A stretch of 64,000 nt of DNA from Rhynchobatus australiae. Lineage: Eukaryota. Positions 1-64,000 of this stretch are shown here, one piece after another (positions within the stretch are counted from its first letter, which is position 1; the number at the start of each line of letters is the position of its first letter). The notes beneath the pieces were generated by a model. The model saw only the letters and a program-made list of their open reading frames with translations. It was not told where the DNA came from and did not search any database. Location: the NCBI GenBank assembly GCA_034780895.1, contig JAUZTB010000118.1, positions 11,961,317 through 12,025,316 on the forward strand, read 5' to 3'. The translations under genes were made by a program, and so were the position numbers.

Positions 1-95
1 GCAGAGCAGTTAAAACAGAAAATGCAGGAGACATTCAGCAGGTCTGGCAGCATCTATGGAGAGAGAAGCAAAGTTAATGTTTCAAGATCAATAAG
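1..95 (-). mobile_element. Penelope-like element terminal fragment (solo)
   Basis: aaaacagaaaatgcaggagacattcagcaggtctggcagcatctatggagagagaagcaaagttaatgtttca matches the terminal repeat seen at 26337-26435 and, inverted, at 63071-63190. Confidence 0.65.
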
Positions 96-2454: not shown

Positions 2455-2875
2455 CTGGTGACACAGTGATGCAGCTAGTAGAGCAGCTGTCTCCAAGCTT
2501 CAGTGACCTGGGTTCAATCCTAATATCCAATGTTGTCTGTGTAGAGTTCGCCTGTTTTCCCTGAGATCATGTCGGTCTCCTCCAGGTGCTCTGGTTTCCT
2601 CCCACATCCCAAAGATGTGCAGACACTAGAGACTGCAGATGCTGGAATCTGGAGCAAAAAATACAAACTGCTGGAGGAATTCAGCAATGCAGCCCAAAGA
2701 TGTGCAGCTTGGTTGATTAAACTGCCACTCTAAATTGCCCCAAGTGTGTAGCTGAGGGGTAGAATCTTGGGGGAGTTGATGAGAATGTGAGGAGAATAGT
2801 GTAAATTAACAGGGGAATGGAATTTCTCTGAGCCAGCATTGACTTGATGGGCTGAAATGGTTCCTCCTATGTTTT
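2455..2875 (+). mobile_element. HE1-like V-SINE (family A) with nested insertion
   Basis: tRNA-like head (acagtgatgcagctagtagag...gggttcaatcc B box), V core (ggtgctctggtttcctcccacatcccaaagatgtgc) and CR1-like tail (gatgggctgaaatggttcctcct). Confidence 0.85.
2623..2692 (-). mobile_element. 70-bp Penelope-terminus insertion with 15-bp target-site duplication
   Basis: gactgcagatgctggaatctggagcaaaaaatacaaactgctggaggaattcagca is flanked by the perfect direct repeat cccaaagatgtgcag at 2608-2622 and 2693-2707. Confidence 0.85.
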
Positions 2876-9195: not shown

Positions 9196-10144
9196 NNNNN
9201 NNNNNNNNNNNNNNNNNNNNNNNNNNNNNNNNNNNNNNNNNNNNNNNNNNNNNNNNNNNNNNNNNNNNNNNNNNNNNNNNNNNNNNNNNNNNNNNNNNNN
9301 NNNNNNNNNNNNNNNNNNNNNNNNNNNNNNNNNNNNNNNNNNNNNNNNNNNNNNNNNNNNNNNNNNNNNNNNNNNNNNNNNNNNNNNNNNNNNNNNNNNN
9401 NNNNNNNNNNNNNNNNNNNNNNNNNNNNNNNNNNNNNNNNNNNNNNNNNNNNNNNNNNNNNNNNNNNNNNNNNNNNNNNNNNNNNNNNNNNNNNNNNNNN
9501 NNNNNNNNNNNNNNNNNNNNNNNNNNNNNNNNNNNNNNNNNNNNNNNNNNNNNNNNNNNNNNNNNNNNNNNNNNNNNNNNNNNNNNNNNNNNNNNNNNNN
9601 NNNNNNNNNNNNNNNNNNNNNNNNNNNNNNNNNNNNNNNNNNNNNNNNNNNNNNNNNNNNNNNNNNNNNNNNNNNNNNNNNNNNNNNNNNNNNNNNNNNN
9701 NNNNNNNNNNNNNNNNNNNNNNNNNNNNNNNNNNNNNNNNNNNNNNNNNNNNNNNNNNNNNNNNNNNNNNNNNNNNNNNNNNNNNNNNNNNNNNNNNNNN
9801 NNNNNNNNNNNNNNNNNNNNNNNNNNNNNNNNNNNNNNNNNNNNNNNNNNNNNNNNNNNNNNNNNNNNNNNNNNNNNNNNNNNNNNNNNNNNNNNNNNNN
9901 NNNNNNNNNNNNNNNNNNNNNNNNNNNNNNNNNNNNNNNNNNNNNNNNNNNNNNNNNNNNNNNNNNNNNNNNNNNNNNNNNNNNNNNNNNNNNNNNNNNN
10001 NNNNNNNNNNNNNNNNNNNNNNNNNNNNNNNNNNNNNNNNNNNNNNNNNNNNNNNNNNNNNNNNNNNNNNNNNNNNNNNNNNNNNNNNNNNNNNNNNNNN
10101 NNNNNNNNNNNNNNNNNNNNNNNNNNNNNNNNNNNNNNNNNNNN

Positions 10145-11215
10145 GCAGGTGGGTAATAGGTGGAAGCAGACAAGAAAGGAAAAACAATGAAGCCAGGTGG
10201 GGAGAGGGAAGGGGGAAAGGTGGAAACAGCGGGTGGCGAGTGATAAATGAGGACACAAAGGCCACCGGTGCTGGAATCTGATAAGCAAGGAAGGTGATAA
10301 TGGGAACCATTTAAGGGAGCAATGATGGACAGATGGGAGCCCAGAAGGAGGAGGGGGTTTGGTGGGTGAAACGTGTAGGTAGTGGGTGAATGGAACTAGG
10401 AGGGGATGGAGGGATGAAGGCAGGAGGGGGAGTTATGCGAAAGGGAACAAAAATAGGAGGACCAGAGGTGGATCGGAAAGGGGGGGAGAGAAGTGAACGC
10501 AGGAGGTGAGGGTCACCTGGAACTGGAACATTCAATGTTCGTGCCATTGGATTGTACGTGACCCAGGTGGAATATGAAGTGTTGTTCTGGTTTGCATTGG
10601 GCCTCAGCCTGGCAGTGGAGAAGACACCGAGGACAGACAGGTTGGTGTGGGAATGTAAAGGGGAGTTGGGATGGATTGCATTTGGGAGCTCAGGATGACT
10701 GTTGTGGACAGTGCACAGGTGATCTGCAAACCAGTCGCCTCATCTGTGCTTCGTCTCACCGATGTAGAGGAGGCCGCATCAAAAGCACCGAATGCAGTAG
10801 ACAAGGTTGGAGGAGGTGCACGTGAATCCTTGCCTCACCTGGAAGGGCTGTATAGGTGGTGAGGGAGGAGGTGTAGGGACAGGTGTTGCACCTCCTACAA
10901 TTGCAGGGCAAAGTGCTAGGGGTCAGGGTGGGGAGGGGTGAGATGACCATGGAGTTGTGGAGAGAGTGGTCCTTGCAGGAAGCAGAAAAGGGTGGGGAGG
11001 GGATTCCATTGTAGCCGGCGGAAATAACGGAAGATGATGTGCTGGAGGTGGAGGCTAGTAGAGTGACAGGTGAGGACTAAGGGAACTCTATCTGTTTGGC
11101 AGGAGTGGGTGTTGAGGGCTGAAAGTCCAGGAAACAGGAAATGTGAGAGAGAGCTCCATCAATCATAGTAGAAGGGAAGCCACGCTTCCTGAGAAAGGAG
11201 GACATTTCAGATACA
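10145..11215 (-). mobile_element. Penelope-like retroelement fragment with GIY-YIG endonuclease (pseudogenised)
   Basis: The reverse strand reads PCNCRRCNTCP (Cys linker), then FTCTSSNLVYCIRCF*CGLLYIGETKHR*GDWFADHL (GIY-YIG), then FIFHLGHVQSNGTNIE; upstream FLRKRGFPSTMIDGAL. In-frame stops and frameshifts are present. Confidence 0.9.
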
Positions 11216-13009
11216 GCACCGGACGTCAGGATCAAAGCAGGGTCACTGGAGCTGTGACTCAACAGCTTTACGAACTGCAGCACTGTACTGCCCCTTCCTC
11301 TGACTCTTTCTCAGTCATTTCTCATTATTCGAGAAGCACTGCTGGTCCAGCATTTAGAGAGGTCCCAGATGTCTAGTTGCCCTTGCCAAGTCAATTTCAG
11401 CTTGCACCAAACTGCATCACATAATGCTTTGAAGCTGAAGAGTGCAGGGAAAGATCCAACTAGTGAGTCACAGGAAGCCCCAGAAGCAAGATCCAACCCA
11501 TTCAATCACAACGCTTAGGCTTTCTTTCCCAACAACTATTATACTTCCTATTCTGTCTGTCTCTGCTTTGGACGCTACACAATGCATTGCATTGAAGAAT
11601 TGGTGTTCTTTGCACTTTTAAACTCATCAACTTCCTGTGGTTAGAAGTGCAATGGTGACTTGCTCCCTGAGCTATATTGGGTTGGTTGATCGTAGACAGA
11701 TATCAGTGGGAACATTTTAATCCACCCAAATTGGCTCAGTGCTCTCATTACTGATCCATAAACACCTCCAAGAGAGTATGAATGTGGATGTGGTGGGAAT
11801 GGTTCTGCCCACTAATGCTGACTGCCTCAACTTGTATATGAACAATTAACTTTTCAAATAATGTACTGGAAGATTGAGAACAAACATTCTGAGTCATGGT
11901 TTTCAATGAAGAGGGAAGGAAAAATGGAACAAAACAAAGTACTTAGAGGATTTAATATTACAGAAAACAGGATCTTTCTATAATCCAGCATCGAGTACCA
12001 ATACTTTGACAAAACTCTTCACGTTGAGAATGGCCTGTGTTTCACTGAATCAAATTATATGGATACAGTAAAGATCTGGCAGCTCAAAGCTGGGCACCAT
12101 AAGCAGCAGTAGAACTGTATTCCATCACAATCCATAACCCACGACCTGGGCATATATCACCATTCTTCTTTGTTGTTGGGACAAAACCTTGCCAGCTCCT
12201 ACCCGACAGGAATGTGGGAGTTCCATCACCTCACTGCCAATGCTTAGTGAAGAAGGCATCTCACCTCCTGCTTCCCAATTAAGGATGGCCTATTAATGTT
12301 TCCTTGCCTGTAATACCAACAACATCAACTTCCATTTAGACCAAAAGTTNNNNNNNNNNNNNNNNNNNNNNNNNNNNNNNNNNNNNNNNNNNNNNNNNNN
12401 NNNNNNNNNNNNNNNNNNNNNNNNNNNNNNNNNNNNNNNNNNNNNNNNNTTATCACTTCAATAAAAATAAATCCCACAACAAATTAGGAGACAAAGTGTA
12501 TCAGTTGTAGGTAAATAAGTAACTGTTACATTATGCTGACAACTCTTTAAACAAAAATGTCACTTATCAGGAAGTATTTTTTTGCCTTTGTATGCACATA
12601 CTGAACATCCTGTTTCCATTTTAGCTTGCCTTCTGCAAATCTTCTTGCGTGTAAGTTACTGAACCCAAGAGTCAACCATCCAGTTAATTTGGTTAGGGTC
12701 ATGTGATTCAAGCTAAATTGAAATAAATCAACCAAGCAAATTCTTGAGCTGAGGCATAGCTTATTTTCTTTGCAAAACTGACTAGAACTTTTTTTTTCCA
12801 TGCAGAAGCAATGAATCCACTACTTTTCTTTTGCTGATGCGTTTGATACATTTTATGAAGTAGAACATTCTATTTGAGTAGCGGTTTACTTTCTACTTGT
12901 GTTGTATTGAAGGATGGAAGATGCTGACTTAGCTTAATTTTTTTTGTGTGATGGAGGAAGTGGTCAGACCTTGGCTGTTGTGGATCCTTATTCAAAGGAG
13001 CCAAAGGGA

Positions 13010-25944: not shown

Positions 25945-26530
25945 AAGAACTGTAGATGCTGGAAATGTGAAATATTGGAATTAGAATTGGTTTATTATTG
26001 TCACTTGTACTGAGGTACAGTGAAAAACTTGTCTTGCATACCGTTCATACATATCAATTCATTATGTACACAGTGCATTGAGGTAGTACAAGGTAAAACA
26101 ATACAGAATGCAGAGTAGAGTGTCACAGCTACAGAGAAAGTGCAGTGCAGGTGGACAATAAGGTTCAAGATCATAACGAGGTAGACTGTGAGGTCAAGAG
26201 TCCATTTTATCGTACTAGGGAACCATTATAACCATTATAGTCTTATAACAGCAGGATAGAAGCTGTCCTTGAACCTGGTGCTACGTGCTTTCAGTCTTTT
26301 GTATCTTCTGCCTGATGGGAGAGGGGAGAAGAGAGAATAAAAAGAGAAAATGCTGGGAATACTCAGCAGGTCAGGCAACATCTGTGGGAAGAAAAACAAG
26401 GTTAACATTTCAGGTCAAAGGCCTTTCTCAGAACCAAGAAAGACAGAAAATAGGTTAGTTTTGTTGCAGAGAGGATGAGGGGGGATGGATAAAACAATGG
26501 GAAATTTCTGATAGGGTGAGGACAGGGTTG
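25945..26530 (-). mobile_element. Penelope-like terminus split by a Rex1 insertion
   Basis: ctgtagatgctggaaatgtgaaata | insertion | ataaaaagagaaaatgctgggaatactcagcaggtcaggcaacatctgtgg...gttaacatttcaggtc. Confidence 0.75.
25975..26336 (-). mobile_element. Rex1/Babar LINE 3' end (nested)
   Basis: ttggtttattattgtcacttgtactgaggtacagtgaaaaacttgtcttgcatac...ctgcctgatgggagaggggagaagagagaat, highly similar to 52238-52583. Confidence 0.85.
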
Positions 26531-27424
26531 CTATGGTGATAAGCTGTTGATGAAGCCATCTGGTTGATAGATTGATCAGGGAAGCTGGAAAGAGTAAAAC
26601 AAAGAGCATGTAAAAACGTGCAAAATACATGACAGCAGTAGGAACTACCAGCAGATTAGGCAGTGTGGGCATCCTTCTGCATGAGTGTCCCTCACTGTCC
26701 ATGGACCATGAAAATCAGGGAAATAGTGACCAGACTTGCAGTGGATGCCACTGGTCCTACTGTGCATCTCTGACCACCTCTGCCGATAAGCACATCAAAT
26801 GTCTGGAGGACCTAGAACAGAAAAGACTTTGTGGAGTGTGCCTTAGGTTCTGTAATCTTACCAAGCACTTTTGCTGCAGACATTGACACTGCACCTGAGT
26901 AAACTTCTAGACCTTTGCCTTCCCTCTCGTGTTGCTGCCCCCAAACGTAAGATGGGAAGTGATGACTATTATGTCGAGCAAACTCTGCGGTAAAGTATTC
27001 GGGTTAAAGCTTTGGGGATTCGGATGGTGGGAGTAGGGTGTGGCAAGACATGGGTACTGGTAGAGGGGTGTGGGAGCTGGGCAGGGTTGGGTATCTGAGA
27101 TTTACAAACATCGGTGTTGCGATAAGGAGTCATGACTGCACTTGTGTTTCTGTGGAGGTGTTTTCTTGCTCCAGTCAGGACAACACTGCAGGCATAATTC
27201 ACAGGCCATTGGAACATCTATCAGTATGTAGCCTTGTACTAACAAGTGCCTCACCTCCTCCACTGGCTGATTGGATGGTTTCAGAATCCCTGGACTGGAT
27301 GCACCTGGAACTAGTGGTTATAAGAAAATGCTGTCACCAGTTTTACTGAAATTTCTGGATTTTGTTTTTGTTTTAATTTCTATCATCAGCCATTGTGATC
27401 ATTTTTCTATATTCCATATTTCCT

Positions 27425-57625: not shown

Positions 57626-59029
57626 CCCACTGAAATTTTATGGAATCTTGCTGATTAATCATGGGTTATTGCAGAAAATGCTTCAAGCAGCTTCTTCTGG
57701 TATCAATCCAGGGCAGCCACATCTTTTTGTGAGTTTCTGCAGCTGTTGTGCTGGAGTCCAAGGTGCAATCACAAAGAGAGCACAAACCAAGTCGACAATC
57801 AAGGATCACGAACATCAAATTTCATTTCATTTATTATGAGTAAGCACACACTGATGAGATTGCAGAAGGGGAATGAGCAATGGGAACATATCGTATAGAG
57901 AAAAGGATGATTTTCAAGTGATCATTAATTACCTTTGTTTCCTTCCAGTGATATCCACAGGGGTTCATTGAAGAGCAAGTAAAATAATTTGGATCAGAAA
58001 TCTGTGTTACAGACACGAGAAAGCCTGGAAGAGATTATATTTTGGAATTCTACATTGGTTGGTGAATGTGTAAATTGAAATAATAATGCTTGGCGTCTTT
58101 ACAAATATTGTAAGAGATCATAAGCTCGGATTCAAAAAAGATAAATTGACATTCTAAATTTAAGTAGTTTGCACAAATGTGGTAAGTAAATAGAAAAGAA
58201 TTCTATGGAAATAGTGGAGTCAGATTATGTTGGCAAATACTAGGGGAACTGGAGAGATAGCTGGTAGTAAGAGGATAATATTTTTCAAACCTTTGGTCTA
58301 ACTAAATAAACAGGAATGGTCTTTTCAGCTCTGTAATGGGAAAGATGATTTTTGAACATGCACAAAAAACATGCAAAATTCTATTGGAAATTCAGTTACT
58401 TCCATCAGGGAAAAGTGCAATAGTCCTTGAAATGTTAATTCAATGAAGTGTAGTGATTACAACCATGCTTTTTGCATTGTAAGTTAAATGCTAAAAAACT
58501 TATATTTTTTCATATACAACACTAGATGCTGAACTCATGGAGAAATTTAGGTCTTGCAAATGGCATTTTTGATCATCCTGAGAATATCACAGTGATGCTC
58601 ATTACAGGTTCCACATTACCAATGGATTGACTTCCAGATAGTTTAGAGAAGATCTGGATAATGAAATTCCATCCAGTCTTTTGTCCGTGTAATGAGCAGG
58701 TCAATAAAAAGTCAATTTCAGTTGCAGATTGAACCCAGTCAAGTCACACACAGGGCATTGTGGATTTGGGGGTTATATTTTGTGGAAATCAAATAACTTC
58801 CAGATGAGAAATGCATTTAACAGGCAACCTTATAGCTTGTATTTTGGGACTCAGATAGAAGGCCACAGGGAAACCCTAGGACATGTCTTCCCACTGTTCC
58901 CCAGTGGTCACCTGTCTGGATCCTGATAGCAATCGTCCTTCCTGAGATCCAGCAACATTCTTTATCCAATTTCTTGAGCCAACTCAGTGCTGAGCTCATC
59001 TTTGAAGAAAAATCAAAAGTTTCCATTTG

Positions 59030-59335
59030 CAACAAACAAGGTGCTGGAGGAACTCAGTGGGTCAGGCACCTATCATGTCCCAGCTTCTGTCACTATTTCC
59101 ACTCTCTCCTCCTCTATGTGCCTATCACCCCTCCTCACCTGGATCCACCTATCACTTGCCAGCTCTTGCTCCATCCCTTCCCTTCACCTTTTTATATTGA
59201 CTATCTCAGTCCAGATGGAGGGTCTCGACCCAAAACAGTGACTGTCCATTTCCCTCCATCGATGGACTCGCTGAGTTCCTCCAGCTTCTTGTTCGTTGAT
59301 ACAGATTCCAGCATCGACAGTCTCTTGTGTCTCCA
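59030..59335 (+). mobile_element. Penelope-like 3' terminus with an inverted partial copy
   Basis: 59030-59063 is the reverse complement (29/34) of 59265-59298; the pyrimidine-rich body resembles the 3' flank of the Penelope fragment at 10145-10500. Confidence 0.75.
59207..59244 (+). ncRNA. Degenerate minimal hammerhead-ribozyme motif
   Basis: cagtc-CAGATGG-a-gggtc-tc-gaccc-AAAA-cagt-gactg: stems I and II are perfect; the core deviates from CTGANGA/GAAA. Confidence 0.55.
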
Positions 59336-59439
59336 ACAGTTTTCATTTTTCCATCTAGAATGCATTATGGGCATTTGTGACCATGGACCATGGTCAATCC
59401 ATTGACCATGACCAATGCAACAAAGAAAACACTAGGATG

Positions 59440-59590
59440 AGTGGGCGGCACAGTGATGCAGGTAATAGAGATGCTGTTTAACAGTGCCAGAGACCCAGGT
59501 TCAGTCCTGACCTTGGGTGCTGTCTTTGTGAAGTTTGCATGATACCCCCATGACCATGTGGATTTCCTCCAAATGCTCTGGTTTCTATTA
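59440..59590 (+). mobile_element. HE1-like V-SINE 5' half
   Basis: gggcggcacagtgatgcaggtaatagag...gacccaggttcagtcctgacc. Confidence 0.75.
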
Positions 59591-59880
59591 CTATTGAAGA
59601 CAACGCAACATAGAAATCTTATGGCTTGCTGGTAATTAGTGAAGTTATTGCCAAAAGGGTTCATGGAATGATTCAGCTCCATGGGTTTTATATTAGATAC
59701 CACTGAGTACTAGATTAGTTCTATGGGTACCATTGTGAGGTTGCACTGTACTTCATTACTATTGACTTATTCAAATCTCATACAATACTAATAGTATAAA
59801 ATAATAAAATCAAGGATTCATGCTTGTGTATTTGTACTTTTGATCCCCAGACCAACTCAGAAATATGTCTCAGAACTTCT

Positions 59881-60020
59881 GGAAACACTTAGCAGGTCAG
59901 GCAGCATCTGCTGAAGCCTGAAATGTTAACATTGTTTCTTGATAAGCAGATGCTGCCTGACCTGCTGAGTATTTCTGCATTTTACTGTTTTTGTTTCGGA
60001 TTCTCAGCATCTGCAATTTT
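59881..60020. repeat. Inverted pair of Penelope termini (fold-back)
   Basis: Perfect 22-bp inverted repeat agcaggtcaggcagcatctgct (59891-59912) / agcagatgctgcctgacctgct (59945-59966) with a 32-nt spacer. Confidence 0.9.
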
Positions 60021-61399
60021 TTTTACTTTCAGAAACATATCTCGGTTGTCCATTAGGTCACTTGGTAATACATGTTATACATTTACAAAGGTTGCAGAAA
60101 TAAGGTTCTGTTTTAACTTCATTTTTTTAATCATTCAATCATTCATGTCCCAACATGTCCAGAATTTTAAATTGTAGTAAAAGGATAATCATTTAATATT
60201 GTTTCAAAACAAAAGGAATGAAGGAGGGTCTGAGGAAAAGTTTCAAATGAAAGAAAAACATTTTAAAATGGATGTTAAGAAGAAGTTCTTCAGTCAAAGG
60301 CTGGAAATTGGTGGAAGCTGCACCCCTTGTAACTGCTATCAAAGCATCCCATGTTGTGGCTGTGGAGTACAGCACAAAGAATAGAGGTGTCTCCCAACCA
60401 AGAGTCAAGGCGGTGTGTTGACAGCATTTCTGTAGTACCTTGAAAATTCCTTGCAGGACCAGAGTGTGATTTTCAAGACTGAGAACTGGGGTAAATGCTT
60501 CTGAGCCATTTAACACCTTCCAAACTGTGTCAGATTAAGGAATATGATGATTGGGACAATTAGTTCAAGTTGAATCTTGATACTTGTCAGAGACGAAAAT
60601 CCTTTGCCATTCACCTGGGAGGGACTTGGGACAAGTTCATGGGAAGGTCAGTTGTCGTGGTGCCTTCCATTGGGTGGTTTGGGGTCAATGCTTCTGATGC
60701 ACCTCTGCAGATTCAGGTCACCTGTACTGATACATCCAACACATAGAAAATAAAAAACAAGGGACCGATGTAGGATTAGTGTAAATGGTAGGTTGATTGT
60801 CAGTGTAGACCCGATAGGATGAAGGGCCTATGTCTGTGTTGTATCTCTTTCTATGACTCTGTGATGACAATCTCATCATTTGAAATTGCTTGAATGACTC
60901 TGGCTTCCACCTTATCGCACTTTCACCGAGGATGCAGCCAAACACAGTTGCTGCTTCACATAAAGCACAAACATCGAACATTGTAAGATAAAATGCTAAA
61001 GAGCTGTTTTGAAAGACCAAAATAGCCCTTTCGTGTCTTTTGAGTGATCATCTTAGTAAACACTGGCATGGAGTCCTGTTACATGATTCCCTGAAGTCAC
61101 CTGGTTTTATTGCATTTGCATGGACCAGAGTGTACTGAAAAGTAACACTGAAATACATTATGTCAAAATTAACCTTGCAGAAAGGGGACTTGACTCCACT
61201 TCAACATTACTGAAGACTTTTTCCACTGCAAAATCCCTGCCAAAAACAATAAGAAGCGGAAAGAGTCAAAGACAAGGTCGTAAGTAAATACTTAATTCAG
61301 GCAGGGTAGCCAAGATAACCACAAGTCCACACGCTTTCTGTCAGTCACCTCCATAGTTAGTGAATTTCCCCCAAAACTGGCACAAAATAGCTTATTTAC

Positions 61400-61745
61400 A
61401 TTTATGCAAATCTGAGAGCAAATCACAACTAAAACTGCAAGTGCAGATTTATGTGCCACTTGCAACCCTTTGACATTTATCAGTTGCGAGGAACAATGGA
61501 AACTCTATAAACTGCCCCGGCTGTGACCTCCTCTAAGCTTGATGTGTGTGCACACGCGGCTCAAAATCCAGGTATAAATAAGTGACCGTGCTACACCCAG
61601 GCGTGCATCAGGTTCAGTAAAGCTCTAAAACAGAAGCCCTTTTGGTTTCAGACTTGGTTTGTGTTTTGCCAACTGCTTTGAGTTACTGTGTTTACAAGAG
61701 AATGTGCAGCTGTGTGCCTGAGAAGTACATTGATGCCTGTAAGTG
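61400..61745 (+). promoter_or_regulatory. Candidate enhancer or TATA promoter block
   Basis: Octamer ATGCAAAT 61404-61411, inverted tgcaagtg/cacttgca 61436-61464, Sox-type AACAATGG 61492-61499, TATAAATA 61573-61580, forkhead-type TGTTTAC 61689-61695, donor cct|gtaagt at 61739; repeat-free. Confidence 0.35.
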
Positions 61746-62659
61746 GAGAAGGAAGGGCAGTGCATGCTAGCTGAAATCAGGTCACGCCACATGCATGACA
61801 GAGAAGATTAAGAACACAGTGAATGGATTTTCTTTAGACTTCTGCAAGGCAGCGTACCTTTCGATTTTAGTATCGGATCAAGTTAAGTAGAACGTTTTAG
61901 GTCCCAAGAATTGGAAGTTATAAACCAATTCATTTCTGTGTTGAATCTTCCTATGTTTCCATTACCTTTTGTTTAATGCCAAACTGCATTAAAATATGTG
62001 CTGGTGTTGTAGCCCTACATCCCTTAAGATATTCATTCTATTAAACTTGCTTAGAAGTTAATGCTGTGGATTTTAACTGTTTAACTCCCAGAGAATGGCT
62101 TCTCACTCATTCCAGAGTGCAGTTGGGATACTTGGAACCAGCAGCTAGTCAATGGCCTGATTGACTGGCAAGGTTGTCCCTCGGGAGTGCCCATTGATTG
62201 ATTAGGGGCTGAGGGGGTTAGATCAATAAGCTTTTCTGGTGACATCTGGGAGCACACCTGCTCTTCCTGACAAAGAGGATGATGGTGCAAAGTAGAAGGA
62301 GGTGGTAATGAGCCAACTAGAAAACAAAAAGATGGGTATAGAGGAGGTGTAGATTGGATTAACAGAATTTCCATTCAGTCCACAAGCATGACCTCAAGCT
62401 TTTGGTTGCCTGTCACTCTTATCATCTGTCTCACTCTCTTGTTCTCTGTCCTTAGCTCCCTGCTGCCCCAGTGAAACTTAGTTTGGTGTTGAGAAACAGG
62501 ATTTCACTCTTTGACTGGGCATGTTACAAAAATTATTCTGCTCTTCTCGCTAAGAAAGACCTGATGAACGTATATTTATATTTCTAATGACACAGAAAGC
62601 CACTCAGCACATTTAAATCCATCCAGTTCTCAGAATAACCCCAGCAATCCCAAGTCAAG

Positions 62660-62845
62660 TCTCAATTCAAGTCGAGGTTATTGTCATGTGCACAAGTACG
62701 GTGAGGTACAGGTACAATGAAAAACTTGCTTGCACCAGCATCACAGACACATATATTCAGACAACACACAGAACATAAGTTATGCATAAATTATACAAGA
62801 CAGTGAAAAAAACTGCGCAAAACAAGACATTAGTGCAAAACAAAA
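62660..62845 (-). mobile_element. Rex1-like LINE 3' end (different subfamily)
   Basis: ttattgtcatgtgcacaagtacggtgaggtacaggtacaatgaaaaacttgcttgca resembles the Rex1 tail. Confidence 0.55.
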
Positions 62846-62909
62846 TCACTTGTGTGCTTAATTCCTGAAAACCTGTTTTTTCTCATATATGTTCATCAAC
62901 TCCACCCTG

Positions 62910-63195
62910 GCTCATGACCCAAAACGTTGACTATCCCTTTTCCTCCACAGATGCTGCCTGATCTGTTGAGTTCCTCCAGCAGCTTGTTTTTCACTAACAG
63001 CCCCGTCAGGCCCACTCTGTGTTTTTAACATCTCATTACTCTCCCGCTTTGTGTTGCAGCATTACCCCTTCTGATGAAGTGTCTTTGACCAGAAACATTA
63101 ACTGTGATTCTCTTTCCACATATCCTACCTGACCTGCTGAGTTTCCAGCACCTTCTGATTTTATTTCAGATCTCCAGCTTCTGCAAGTTTTTTGC
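62910..63195 (+). mobile_element. Two adjacent Penelope-like termini
   Basis: gacccaaaacgttgact...ccacagatgctgcctgatctgttgagttcctccagca, then ctgatgaagtgtctttgaccagaaacattaactg...cctgacctgctgagtttccagca. Confidence 0.75.
63066..63104 (+). ncRNA. Minimal hammerhead-ribozyme motif with intact core boxes
   Basis: CTGATGA 63071-63077, stem II gtc-ttt-gac 63081-63089, GAAA 63092-63095; stem I is eroded. Confidence 0.55.
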
Positions 63196-63269
63196 CTCCT
63201 ATTTACCCTTTTTGTCATTTGATTTCTCCACATAATCATGGACTTTCTCTTTTGTTCTCCACCCCCCTC

Positions 63270-63625
63270 ACCAGCATAGTGGTGCAGTGGTTAGTGCTGT
63301 TGTCTCACAGCTCCAGTGACCCAAGTTTAGTCCTTTCCTCTATTGCTACCCGTATGGAGTTTGCATGTTCCCATTGTGGCCACATGAAGTCCGCCTGGGT
63401 GTTGCTGTTTCCTCTCACATCCTGATGGTGTGCTGATTGATCAGCTAAGTGAATACTGTAAATGACCCCTGGTGTAGATGGCTGGGAAGAGAACCAGAGT
63501 AGAGTTCATGAACATGTAAGAAAGAAAGGGTTATTAGGAATTAAGTACATGAATGGATTGGAAGGATTACTCTGAGAACTGGCAAAGACCAATGGGCTGA
63601 ATGGCTCCTTCTATGTTGTTAGAAA
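63270..63625 (+). mobile_element. HE1-like V-SINE, diverged
   Basis: gcatagtggtgcagtggttagtgctgttgtctcacagctccagtgacccaagtt...aatgggctgaatggctccttctatgttg. Confidence 0.75.
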
Positions 63626-63679
63626 TATGAATGTATGTTTGCCACATTCTTCTGCATCAGTTTTATCTCCATATTTCCC

Positions 63680-63800
63680 CAGTTCTGATGAAGGATCATC
63701 ATCTTAACAGTTAACTTTTTTTTTCCACGGATATTGCTCACTGCTGAGCATCTCTGGCAGATTCTGCATTTATTTCAGATTTTCTGAGAATGTATTTTTT
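63680..63800 (+). mobile_element. Penelope-like terminus with partial hammerhead core
   Basis: agtt-CTGATGA-aggat-catc-atctt-aacagtt-aact...ctgctgagcatctctggcag...ttatttcagatttt. Confidence 0.6.
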
Positions 63801-63824
63801 GCTTTTGTCTCAAAAATATATAGA

Positions 63825-64000
63825 GTCATAGAGTCATAGAACACAGAAACAGGTCCTTTGGCCCAACCAGACCATGCCAACCAAGATGCCCATCTAAGCC
63901 AGTCCCATTTGCCCACATTTGGCCCATACCCTCTAAACCTTTCCTATACATGTAGCTGTCCAAAAGTATTTTGAATTTTGGTAATGTGCCTGCTTCAACC
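63825..64000 (-). mobile_element. CR1 3' end (continues past the window)
   Basis: (agtcatag)x2 tail, then acagaaacaggtcctttggccca...agtcccatttgcccacatttggcccata. Confidence 0.85.

Follow-up and report, generated by a model that had tools for sequence, protein, structure and literature searches.

The window that we analyzed, a stretch of 64,000 nucleotides (64 kb) from Rhynchobatus australiae (positions 11,961,317 to 12,025,316 of contig JAUZTB010000118.1), contains scattered copies of a short sequence with a hammerhead-like motif. These copies are probably (at roughly 0.7) decayed, 5'-truncated 3' ends of Penelope-like retrotransposons (PLEs) that encode an endonuclease, with a minimal hammerhead that was likely copied uncut; on this reading, two of the five subfamilies of the terminus spread with a core change that is predicted to cripple cleavage. 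Minimal hammerheads in the ends of Penelope elements were already known (PMC4209133); what this analysis adds is the pair of amplified core variants and the mapping of the copies' ends.

A Penelope-like terminus with a hammerhead motif

The initial annotation of the window, which was made from its sequence, described five copies of the motif (at 59207, 62916, 63066, 63681, and 26400) and attributed them to the ends of Penelope elements. The letters that it quoted are present at all five coordinates. The copies are homologous, both by nhmmer (E values of 1e-24 to 1e-32 for a profile that was made from these same copies) and by pairwise alignment to the majority sequences of the subfamilies. They are parts of one terminus of about 130 nt, and the profile found about 10 fragments of it in the window. 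When copies were sorted by the sequence downstream of the ribozyme, we obtained five subfamilies: A, B1, B2, B3, and C. The copies at 63066, 63681, and 26400 belong to A, the copy at 59207 belongs to B1, and the copy at 62916 is B-type.

The attribution to Penelope was borne out: for copies of all five subfamilies, the terminus was found 3' of remnants of a GIY-YIG endonuclease. The relatives of the 59207 copy all stop sharply at a common 3' end but have staggered 5' ends, and the longest of them reach the C terminus of the endonuclease. Conversely, of 30 loci that were found with an endonuclease fragment, 25 have the terminus on the same strand, 192 to 842 nt downstream (one is the query's own locus). 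A Penelope-type protein match ends within 900 nt upstream of 13 of 114 copies of A, 20 of 93 of B1, 2 of 13 of B2, 2 of 33 of B3, 10 of 28 of C, and 7 of 37 copies without a subfamily; these are counts and not rates, as they include loci that were seeded with the endonuclease. They also include copies of A that were retrieved by DNA similarity alone. At one locus (L121), a reverse transcriptase (RT) frame shares 52% identity with proteins that have both an RT and a GIY-YIG domain. The endonuclease and RT fragments in the genome score below the Pfam cutoffs, and their assignment is by 35 to 52% identity to intact proteins with both domains. A C-x4-C-xx-C linker before the endonuclease can be read in the translations of two B1 loci (L100 and L093) and of L120, which fits the Neptune type of PMC8557442. 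The copies have the hallmarks of endonuclease-bearing PLEs: 5' truncation, an inverted 5' partner, and an optional tail of 30 to 40 nt. Among the fetched loci, we found no full-length copy with two pseudo-long terminal repeats (pLTRs) around an intact open reading frame (ORF); L121 has the RT and the endonuclease between stretches of N. A metagenome scan with the homologue P0010 found no locus.

The motif had also been described as a minimal type I hammerhead, and the majority sequences of A, B2, and C do match the consensus of PMC4209133: each has a stem I of 4 to 5 bp, CUGANGA, an extra A, stem II, GAAA, and ACGU followed by C or U. The CUGANGA and GAAA boxes, with the extra base before stem II and the G at position 10.1, have 2,621 exact matches in the genome. 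The core boxes are altered in B1 (U4A) and in B3 (A9C), and no copy in the window matches the full motif. The ACGU palindrome stands in place of helix III, before UH, and its CpG decays in single copies. The B1 majority retains a 5-bp stem I, stem II, GAAA, and ACGU. The B3 majority (from 7 copies) reads AUGU, which is likely due to CpG decay, and all 838 matches in the genome in which position 9 is not A retain GAAACGT. The cut would follow GUU, as had been predicted, in A and C, but GUC in B1 to B3. The proposed self-cleaving ancestor is plausible only for the subfamilies with a canonical core (A, B2, and C). At the base of stem II, a G-U is fixed at pair 10.1-11.1 in subfamily A (T in 53 of the 63 copies that keep the following G); in contrast, B1 shows symmetric CpG decay.

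Covariation of the stems was overstated in the initial annotation, although one pair has changed on both sides. We considered 93 of 120 candidate copies that had not been chosen by a stem-specifying pattern or a BLAST seed (27 of the lower-scoring candidates were omitted). The core-proximal pair of stem I is C-G in 52 of these copies, U-A in 14, U-G in 8, and unpaired in 19. Stem I is AGUU/AACU in A and AGUC/GACU in B and C, or one compensatory pair apart, which amounts to a single event between lineages, and there is no other well-populated two-sided change. The overall covariation score was 0.193, versus 0.180 for shuffled data, and 37 of 500 shuffles reached it; two-sided changes were present in 35 cells versus 23.1 when shuffled (2 of 500 shuffles), but this measure is inflated by the relatedness of the copies. 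RNAalifold found no consensus pair in an alignment of decayed copies. A search of Rfam with E values up to 10 identified no hammerhead in the window, nor in four loci that were chosen for a copy with an intact core, so Rfam is not a test for this motif.

We also considered whether the likeness to a hammerhead might be incidental, with the end being conserved as a promoter, a splice signal, or a protein-binding signal that was never a ribozyme in this lineage. The weak covariation, the lack of an Rfam match, and the changes at two core positions in large subfamilies would fit, but three subfamilies match every published consensus position (CUGANGA, the extra base, G10.1, GAAA, the palindrome, and UH) at the expected site in the element, and the core-proximal pair of stem I has changed on both sides. 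We consider this explanation to be highly improbable.

Core changes in subfamilies B1 and B3

Two large lineages of the terminus have fixed a change in the core: U4A in B1 and A9C in B3. The A at position 4 of the 59207 copy had been taken for a lesion of that copy, but it is the fixed state of its subfamily. Across the genome, the pattern CTGANGA-N11-15-GAAACGT has 7,784 matches, versus 436 for the reversed control. In one fixed frame, position 4 is U in 2,621 matches, A in 701, and G in 48, while the controls gave 0. If these were random transversions, A and G would be about equally frequent, so A4 is not random decay. Among the first 100 listed of the 838 matches with a changed position 9, 83 have C, 14 have G, and 3 have T (counted by eye).

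The same changes are found in copies that were not retrieved by the core pattern and that were assigned to subfamilies from their flanks: A4 is present in 44 of 51 readable copies of B1 (a sample that is enriched, as it was seeded with the 59207 copy), C9 in 7 of 7 copies of B3, and U4 in 28 of 29 copies of A. In 57 unselected bystander copies, the core could be read: it is canonical in 22 of them, has A4 or C9 in 30, and is of another kind in 5. In a tree of 98 downstream columns, A and C are supported clades (100/99 each), and the A4 and C9 labels cluster, with 30 changes versus 74 when shuffled. The median divergence is 15% for A, 12% for B1, 11% for B3, 10% for B2, and 5% for C. Since insertion, 117 of 1,107 non-CpG sites in the core and 740 of 6,238 in the flanks have changed (P = 0.22): core letters changed as often as flank letters, and thus the copies are neutral relics. 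The flanks of the fetched loci contain 107 further fragments of the terminus in 406 kb, and the window has about 10 in 64 kb. This extrapolates to a few hundred thousand fragments in the 2.2-Gb genome, a figure that is biased upward by clustering.

A9 pairs with G12 and matters for hammerhead catalysis. Neither U4A nor A9C was found in the literature that we searched, in which A9C was sought only within PMC3088659. Lunse et al. 2017 is reportedly about PLE hammerhead variants that cleave as dimers and may already list such core variants. In a type III hammerhead, every single mutant of the CUGA turn had low activity (PMC9901934). Because B1 and B3 spread with a core that is predicted to cripple cleavage, cleavage was likely dispensable for their spread.

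Alternatively, the elements might have the same Penelope origin, with U4A and A9C as working variants: B1 and B3 would still cut, as dimers or with help from a protein, and cleavage would be under selection. The rest of the B1 motif is kept, as described above; natural core variants with residual activity exist (PMC3088659); and the ribozyme from Anolis requires a protein to cut (PMC11167929). Yet the B1 majority, when compared to that of B2, has no compensating change alongside A4, and for the CUGA-turn mutants of PMC9901934, second changes gave no rescue. Also, B1 to B3 differ at few sites, so the retention of the stems is uninformative about selection. We think that this alternative is unlikely.

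Ends of the copies and their templates

We mapped the ends of 135 copies that were not selected by the core pattern, with positions counted from C3 and a reference that stops near +129. There are two preferred 3' ends, at about 95 and about 125 nt past C3: 68 copies end at +120 or beyond and 26 at +90 to +99, while just 1 ends near the cut site (+28). At the 5' side, 33 copies begin at -7 to 0, 6 at -30 to -11, and 2 at +25 to +31, which is the expected position of the cut. Because the 5' ends peak at stem I instead of where a cut would place them, it is likely that the templates had not been cut. Similarly, the two 3' clusters and the near absence of ends at the cut site fit the starts of reverse transcription on uncut RNA that were described in PMC11167929. 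In that study, the main substrate was RNA that had not been processed, reverse transcription began at two internal sites, and ribozyme mutants had no effect on insertion in vitro.

By analogy with the Anolis element, reverse transcription would have begun downstream of the ribozyme, at either of two internal sites; it would have run through the intact motif and would often have stopped at the motif's 5' edge. The masters of A, B2, and C would cut slowly, either as dimers via the ACGU palindrome or with the element's protein, whereas B1 and B3 would show little or no cleavage.

The 5' peak might be due to transcripts that start at stem I, to a splice acceptor there, or to stalling of the RT at the fold. 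All five majority sequences have a pyrimidine tract and a CAG that ends 2 nt before C3, so that a splice-acceptor-like sequence lies inside stem I. Separately, four of the majority sequences (A, B1, B3, and C) have a splice-donor-like AG|GTAA that overlaps the stop codon of the endonuclease (for example, at L100, L103, and L106). We tried the 270 to 410 nt of untranslated region (UTR) between these two sites as an intron, but the junction pattern had 0 exact matches and 7 matches with one mismatch, and none of the 7 has endonuclease sequence directly upstream (by eye). Such an intron is thus not supported, although it is conceivable because Penelope elements retain introns. We also tried a shared first exon: among 69 short copies without an inversion, the only upstream sequence in common was fragments of the terminus. 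As a separate observation, the majority sequence of subfamily A has an old, degenerate second ribozyme terminus in its UTR, about 300 nt upstream of C3 (at L226 to L254, and in part at 26640-26666 of the window, on the minus strand), which implies that the master had fixed a partial tandem of ancient origin.

A second set of 210 copies, which overlaps the first, includes 100 that start at most 9 nt upstream of C3 (a few of these rows are failed alignments). An inverted terminus abuts 31 of these 100 short-start copies, versus 8 of 70 longer ones. Among 119 copies that were found by pattern, 30 have an inverted terminus within 250 nt upstream, versus 3 downstream. At L154 (1490-1560) and L161 (1489-1560), the inversion junction uses stem I itself, and the ribozyme core forms the loop of a long hairpin. 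Such junctions in a few inverted insertions suggest that the cDNA was primed by folding back at stem I.

The abundance of solo termini had been explained by a short, non-autonomous family that resembles retrozymes; such a family would have its own master of about 130 nt and would be mobilized by Penelope proteins. A near-constant short unit does recur, as just described, and non-LTR retrozymes have been reported from one chondrichthyan (10.64898/2026.07.22.740005). The 5' ends pile up at stem I, but they do not delimit a tandem retrozyme unit. Short copies are found in all five subfamilies and share the markers of long, endonuclease-linked copies, and the copies are 5'-truncated or inverted instead of tandem: direct repeats lie within 250 nt upstream of just 5 of the 119 copies, versus 30 for inverted repeats. 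Of the 135 mapped copies, just 2 have their 5' end and 1 its 3' end near the cut site, so the unit is not bounded by cleavage sites. No tandem array spans the copies in 58800-64000, and those at 62909, 63069, and 63660 are of different subfamilies or ages and have unrelated spacers. At the loci examined, head-to-tail units with complete hammerheads are limited to isolated close pairs, such as two matches that are 76 nt apart. Thus, a retrozyme-like family is very unlikely to account for these copies.

We hold a stronger proposal only tentatively, at somewhat under even odds: that about half of the several hundred thousand Penelope termini in this genome derive from non-cutting masters that had lost an invariant core base (U4A or A9C), that the fold, at whose 5' edge the cDNA ends pile up beside the conserved splice-acceptor-like site, is in these elements not a catalyst but a landmark (structural or for splicing) that determines the point at which copying ends, and that cleavage is dispensable for transposition, for which this would be natural evidence on the scale of a genome.

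Several points weigh against our view that the elements were copied uncut and that B1 and B3 spread with crippled cores. First, a hammerhead of this architecture, or one with help from a protein, may tolerate U4A or A9C; although most core changes are costly, some natural core variants have low but real activity (PMC3088659). Alternatively, A9C can be interpreted as the insertion of a C between G8 and A9. Second, no full-length element of B1 or B3, with two termini and an intact ORF, was present among the fetched loci, so B1 and B3 may have been mobilized in trans. Third, the oldest and the youngest subfamilies (A and C) both retain the canonical core, which points to long-term selection for it. 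Fourth, the tree of downstream columns does not resolve either A4 or C9 as a single clade, and the B1 sample was enriched by its seed. Finally, the 5' peak is observed, but its cause is only conjectural.

Copies in the window and related elements

As the initial annotation proposed, every copy in the window has at least one lesion and is probably inactive. A strict descriptor of the minimal hammerhead had 0 matches on the two strands of the window (the mean for shuffled sequence was also 0), and the alignment of each copy agrees. The Penelope-derived copies at this locus are dead.

The B1 copy is a 5'-truncated 3' end at 59067..59334 on the plus strand, as identified by alignment to the B1 majority computed in-script; its relatives reach GIY-YIG sequence. 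It comprises about 145 nt of pyrimidine-rich UTR, the ribozyme motif (59207..59244), and a tail of about 90 nt. The motif keeps both stems (stem I, CAGTC/GACTG; stem II, GGGTC/GACCC), but its core reads CAGATGG, G12 is changed to A, and ACGT is broken. The U4A, at 59213, was inherited, while A9G, G12A, and the broken ACGT are specific to this copy. Its 5' end adjoins an inverted fragment of the terminus (59029..59069, minus strand, by alignment), in an inverted junction of the pLTR type. An 11-nt near-duplication with one mismatch (59018-59028 and 59338-59348, found by eye) brackets the whole inverted-plus-direct insertion and is possibly a target-site duplication. The 3' junction of this copy is bridged by a contig of a second organism, so the insertion is older than that split.

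Three more copies lie on the plus strand nearby and were identified by alignment. The B-type fragment at 62909..62991 starts inside stem II, lacks the CUGANGA half, and has G12 changed to A. The terminus at 63069..63193 is of subfamily A, and the tree places it within that clade (support 100/99). It begins just 2 nt before C3 and has intact CTGATGA and GAAA, but the 5' strand of stem I is mostly absent and ACGT has become ACAT. The terminus at 63660..63800 is an old member of subfamily A in which stem I (AGTT/AACT) and CTGATGA survive, whereas stem II and GAAA are lost. On the minus strand, 26336..26666 is a copy from subfamily A that includes about 250 nt of UTR upstream of the motif, a short 3' end without a tail, and a one-base deletion in the core. 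Other repeats, at 62640-62820, 63270-63490, and 63840-64000, lie between or after the copies and are multicopy in the fetched loci; we take these to be SINE- and LINE-like.

The profile and alignments also identified fragments on the minus strand at 12..91 (subfamily A) and 2621..2685 (a B-type tail). At 59871..60025, Rfam and alignment revealed two subfamily A fragments that are head to head and form a hairpin; most of this region is covered by a contig of the second organism. A sub-threshold match to MIR862 at 59880 is spurious and comes from this hairpin, and such head-to-head pairs could be misannotated as microRNAs. Finally, a broken remnant of a Penelope-like ORF (the linker and the end of the GIY-YIG domain) is at 10537..11277 on the minus strand (tblastn, E values down to 1.6e-16). 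It is followed by a pyrimidine-rich UTR, and its terminus would fall in a stretch of N (9196-10144).

The motif resembles the published minimal PLE hammerheads in its CUGANGA, the extra base before G10.1, the stem II of 4 to 5 bp, GAAA, the ACGU palindrome, the UC or UU cut site, and the stem I of 4 to 5 bp, and also in that most copies are solitary and truncated, with some opposite-strand pairs. It differs in that subfamily A has the fixed G-U at 10.1-11.1. Among the rows examined in Fig. S3 of the published set, there is no cartilaginous fish, and the core variant is U3-A8, with neither U4A nor A9C.

The Poseidon element PAc of Anolis carolinensis (Frangieh et al. 2024, PMC11167929) has two RT start sites downstream of the ribozyme, which give an optional tail, a ribozyme that is dispensable for insertion, and no RNA ends at the cut site. 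The two clusters of 3' ends that we mapped, and the near absence of ends at the cut site, fit this. In contrast to PAc, whose canonical core has been assayed, the elements in this genome have a Neptune-type Cys linker and fixed noncanonical cores and are known from sequence alone. They share with Neptune-type endonuclease-bearing PLEs (Craig et al. 2021, PMC8557442) the RT, the CX2-5CxxC linker, the C-terminal GIY-YIG domain, 5' truncation, an inverted 5'-truncated partner, the 30- to 40-nt tail, and a hammerhead in the pLTR. This likeness is by linker motif and not by a tree, and Nematis has the linker motif too.

Like non-LTR retrozymes (Cervera and De la Pena 2020, PMC7229834; Li et al. 2026, 10.64898/2026.07.22.740005), the copies are short, noncoding, and tied to Penelope, and they carry a type I hammerhead. 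Those retrozymes are tandem units of 150 to 450 nt, with mostly canonical hammerheads, that are expressed as circles, whereas our copies are dispersed and truncated or inverted, with minimal motifs. The intron of the Drosophila virilis Penelope element ends in helix I (PMC4209133; PMC2377424), much as the pyrimidine tract and CAG lie inside stem I here; but no exon junction with the endonuclease stop was found when we sought it.

Craig et al. (PMC8557442) described the function of Penelope ribozymes as unclear. In this genome, sister subfamilies that are one core letter apart were each amplified widely, which provides a matched set (B2 versus B1 and B3). Together, the core variants and the end mapping make the dispensability of cleavage directly testable. 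About half of these termini would escape descriptor searches that require CUGANGA. If B1 and B3 do cut, they would be natural core variants that are not described in the literature that we searched. If they do not cut, then their spread would be in vivo support for the dispensability of cleavage.

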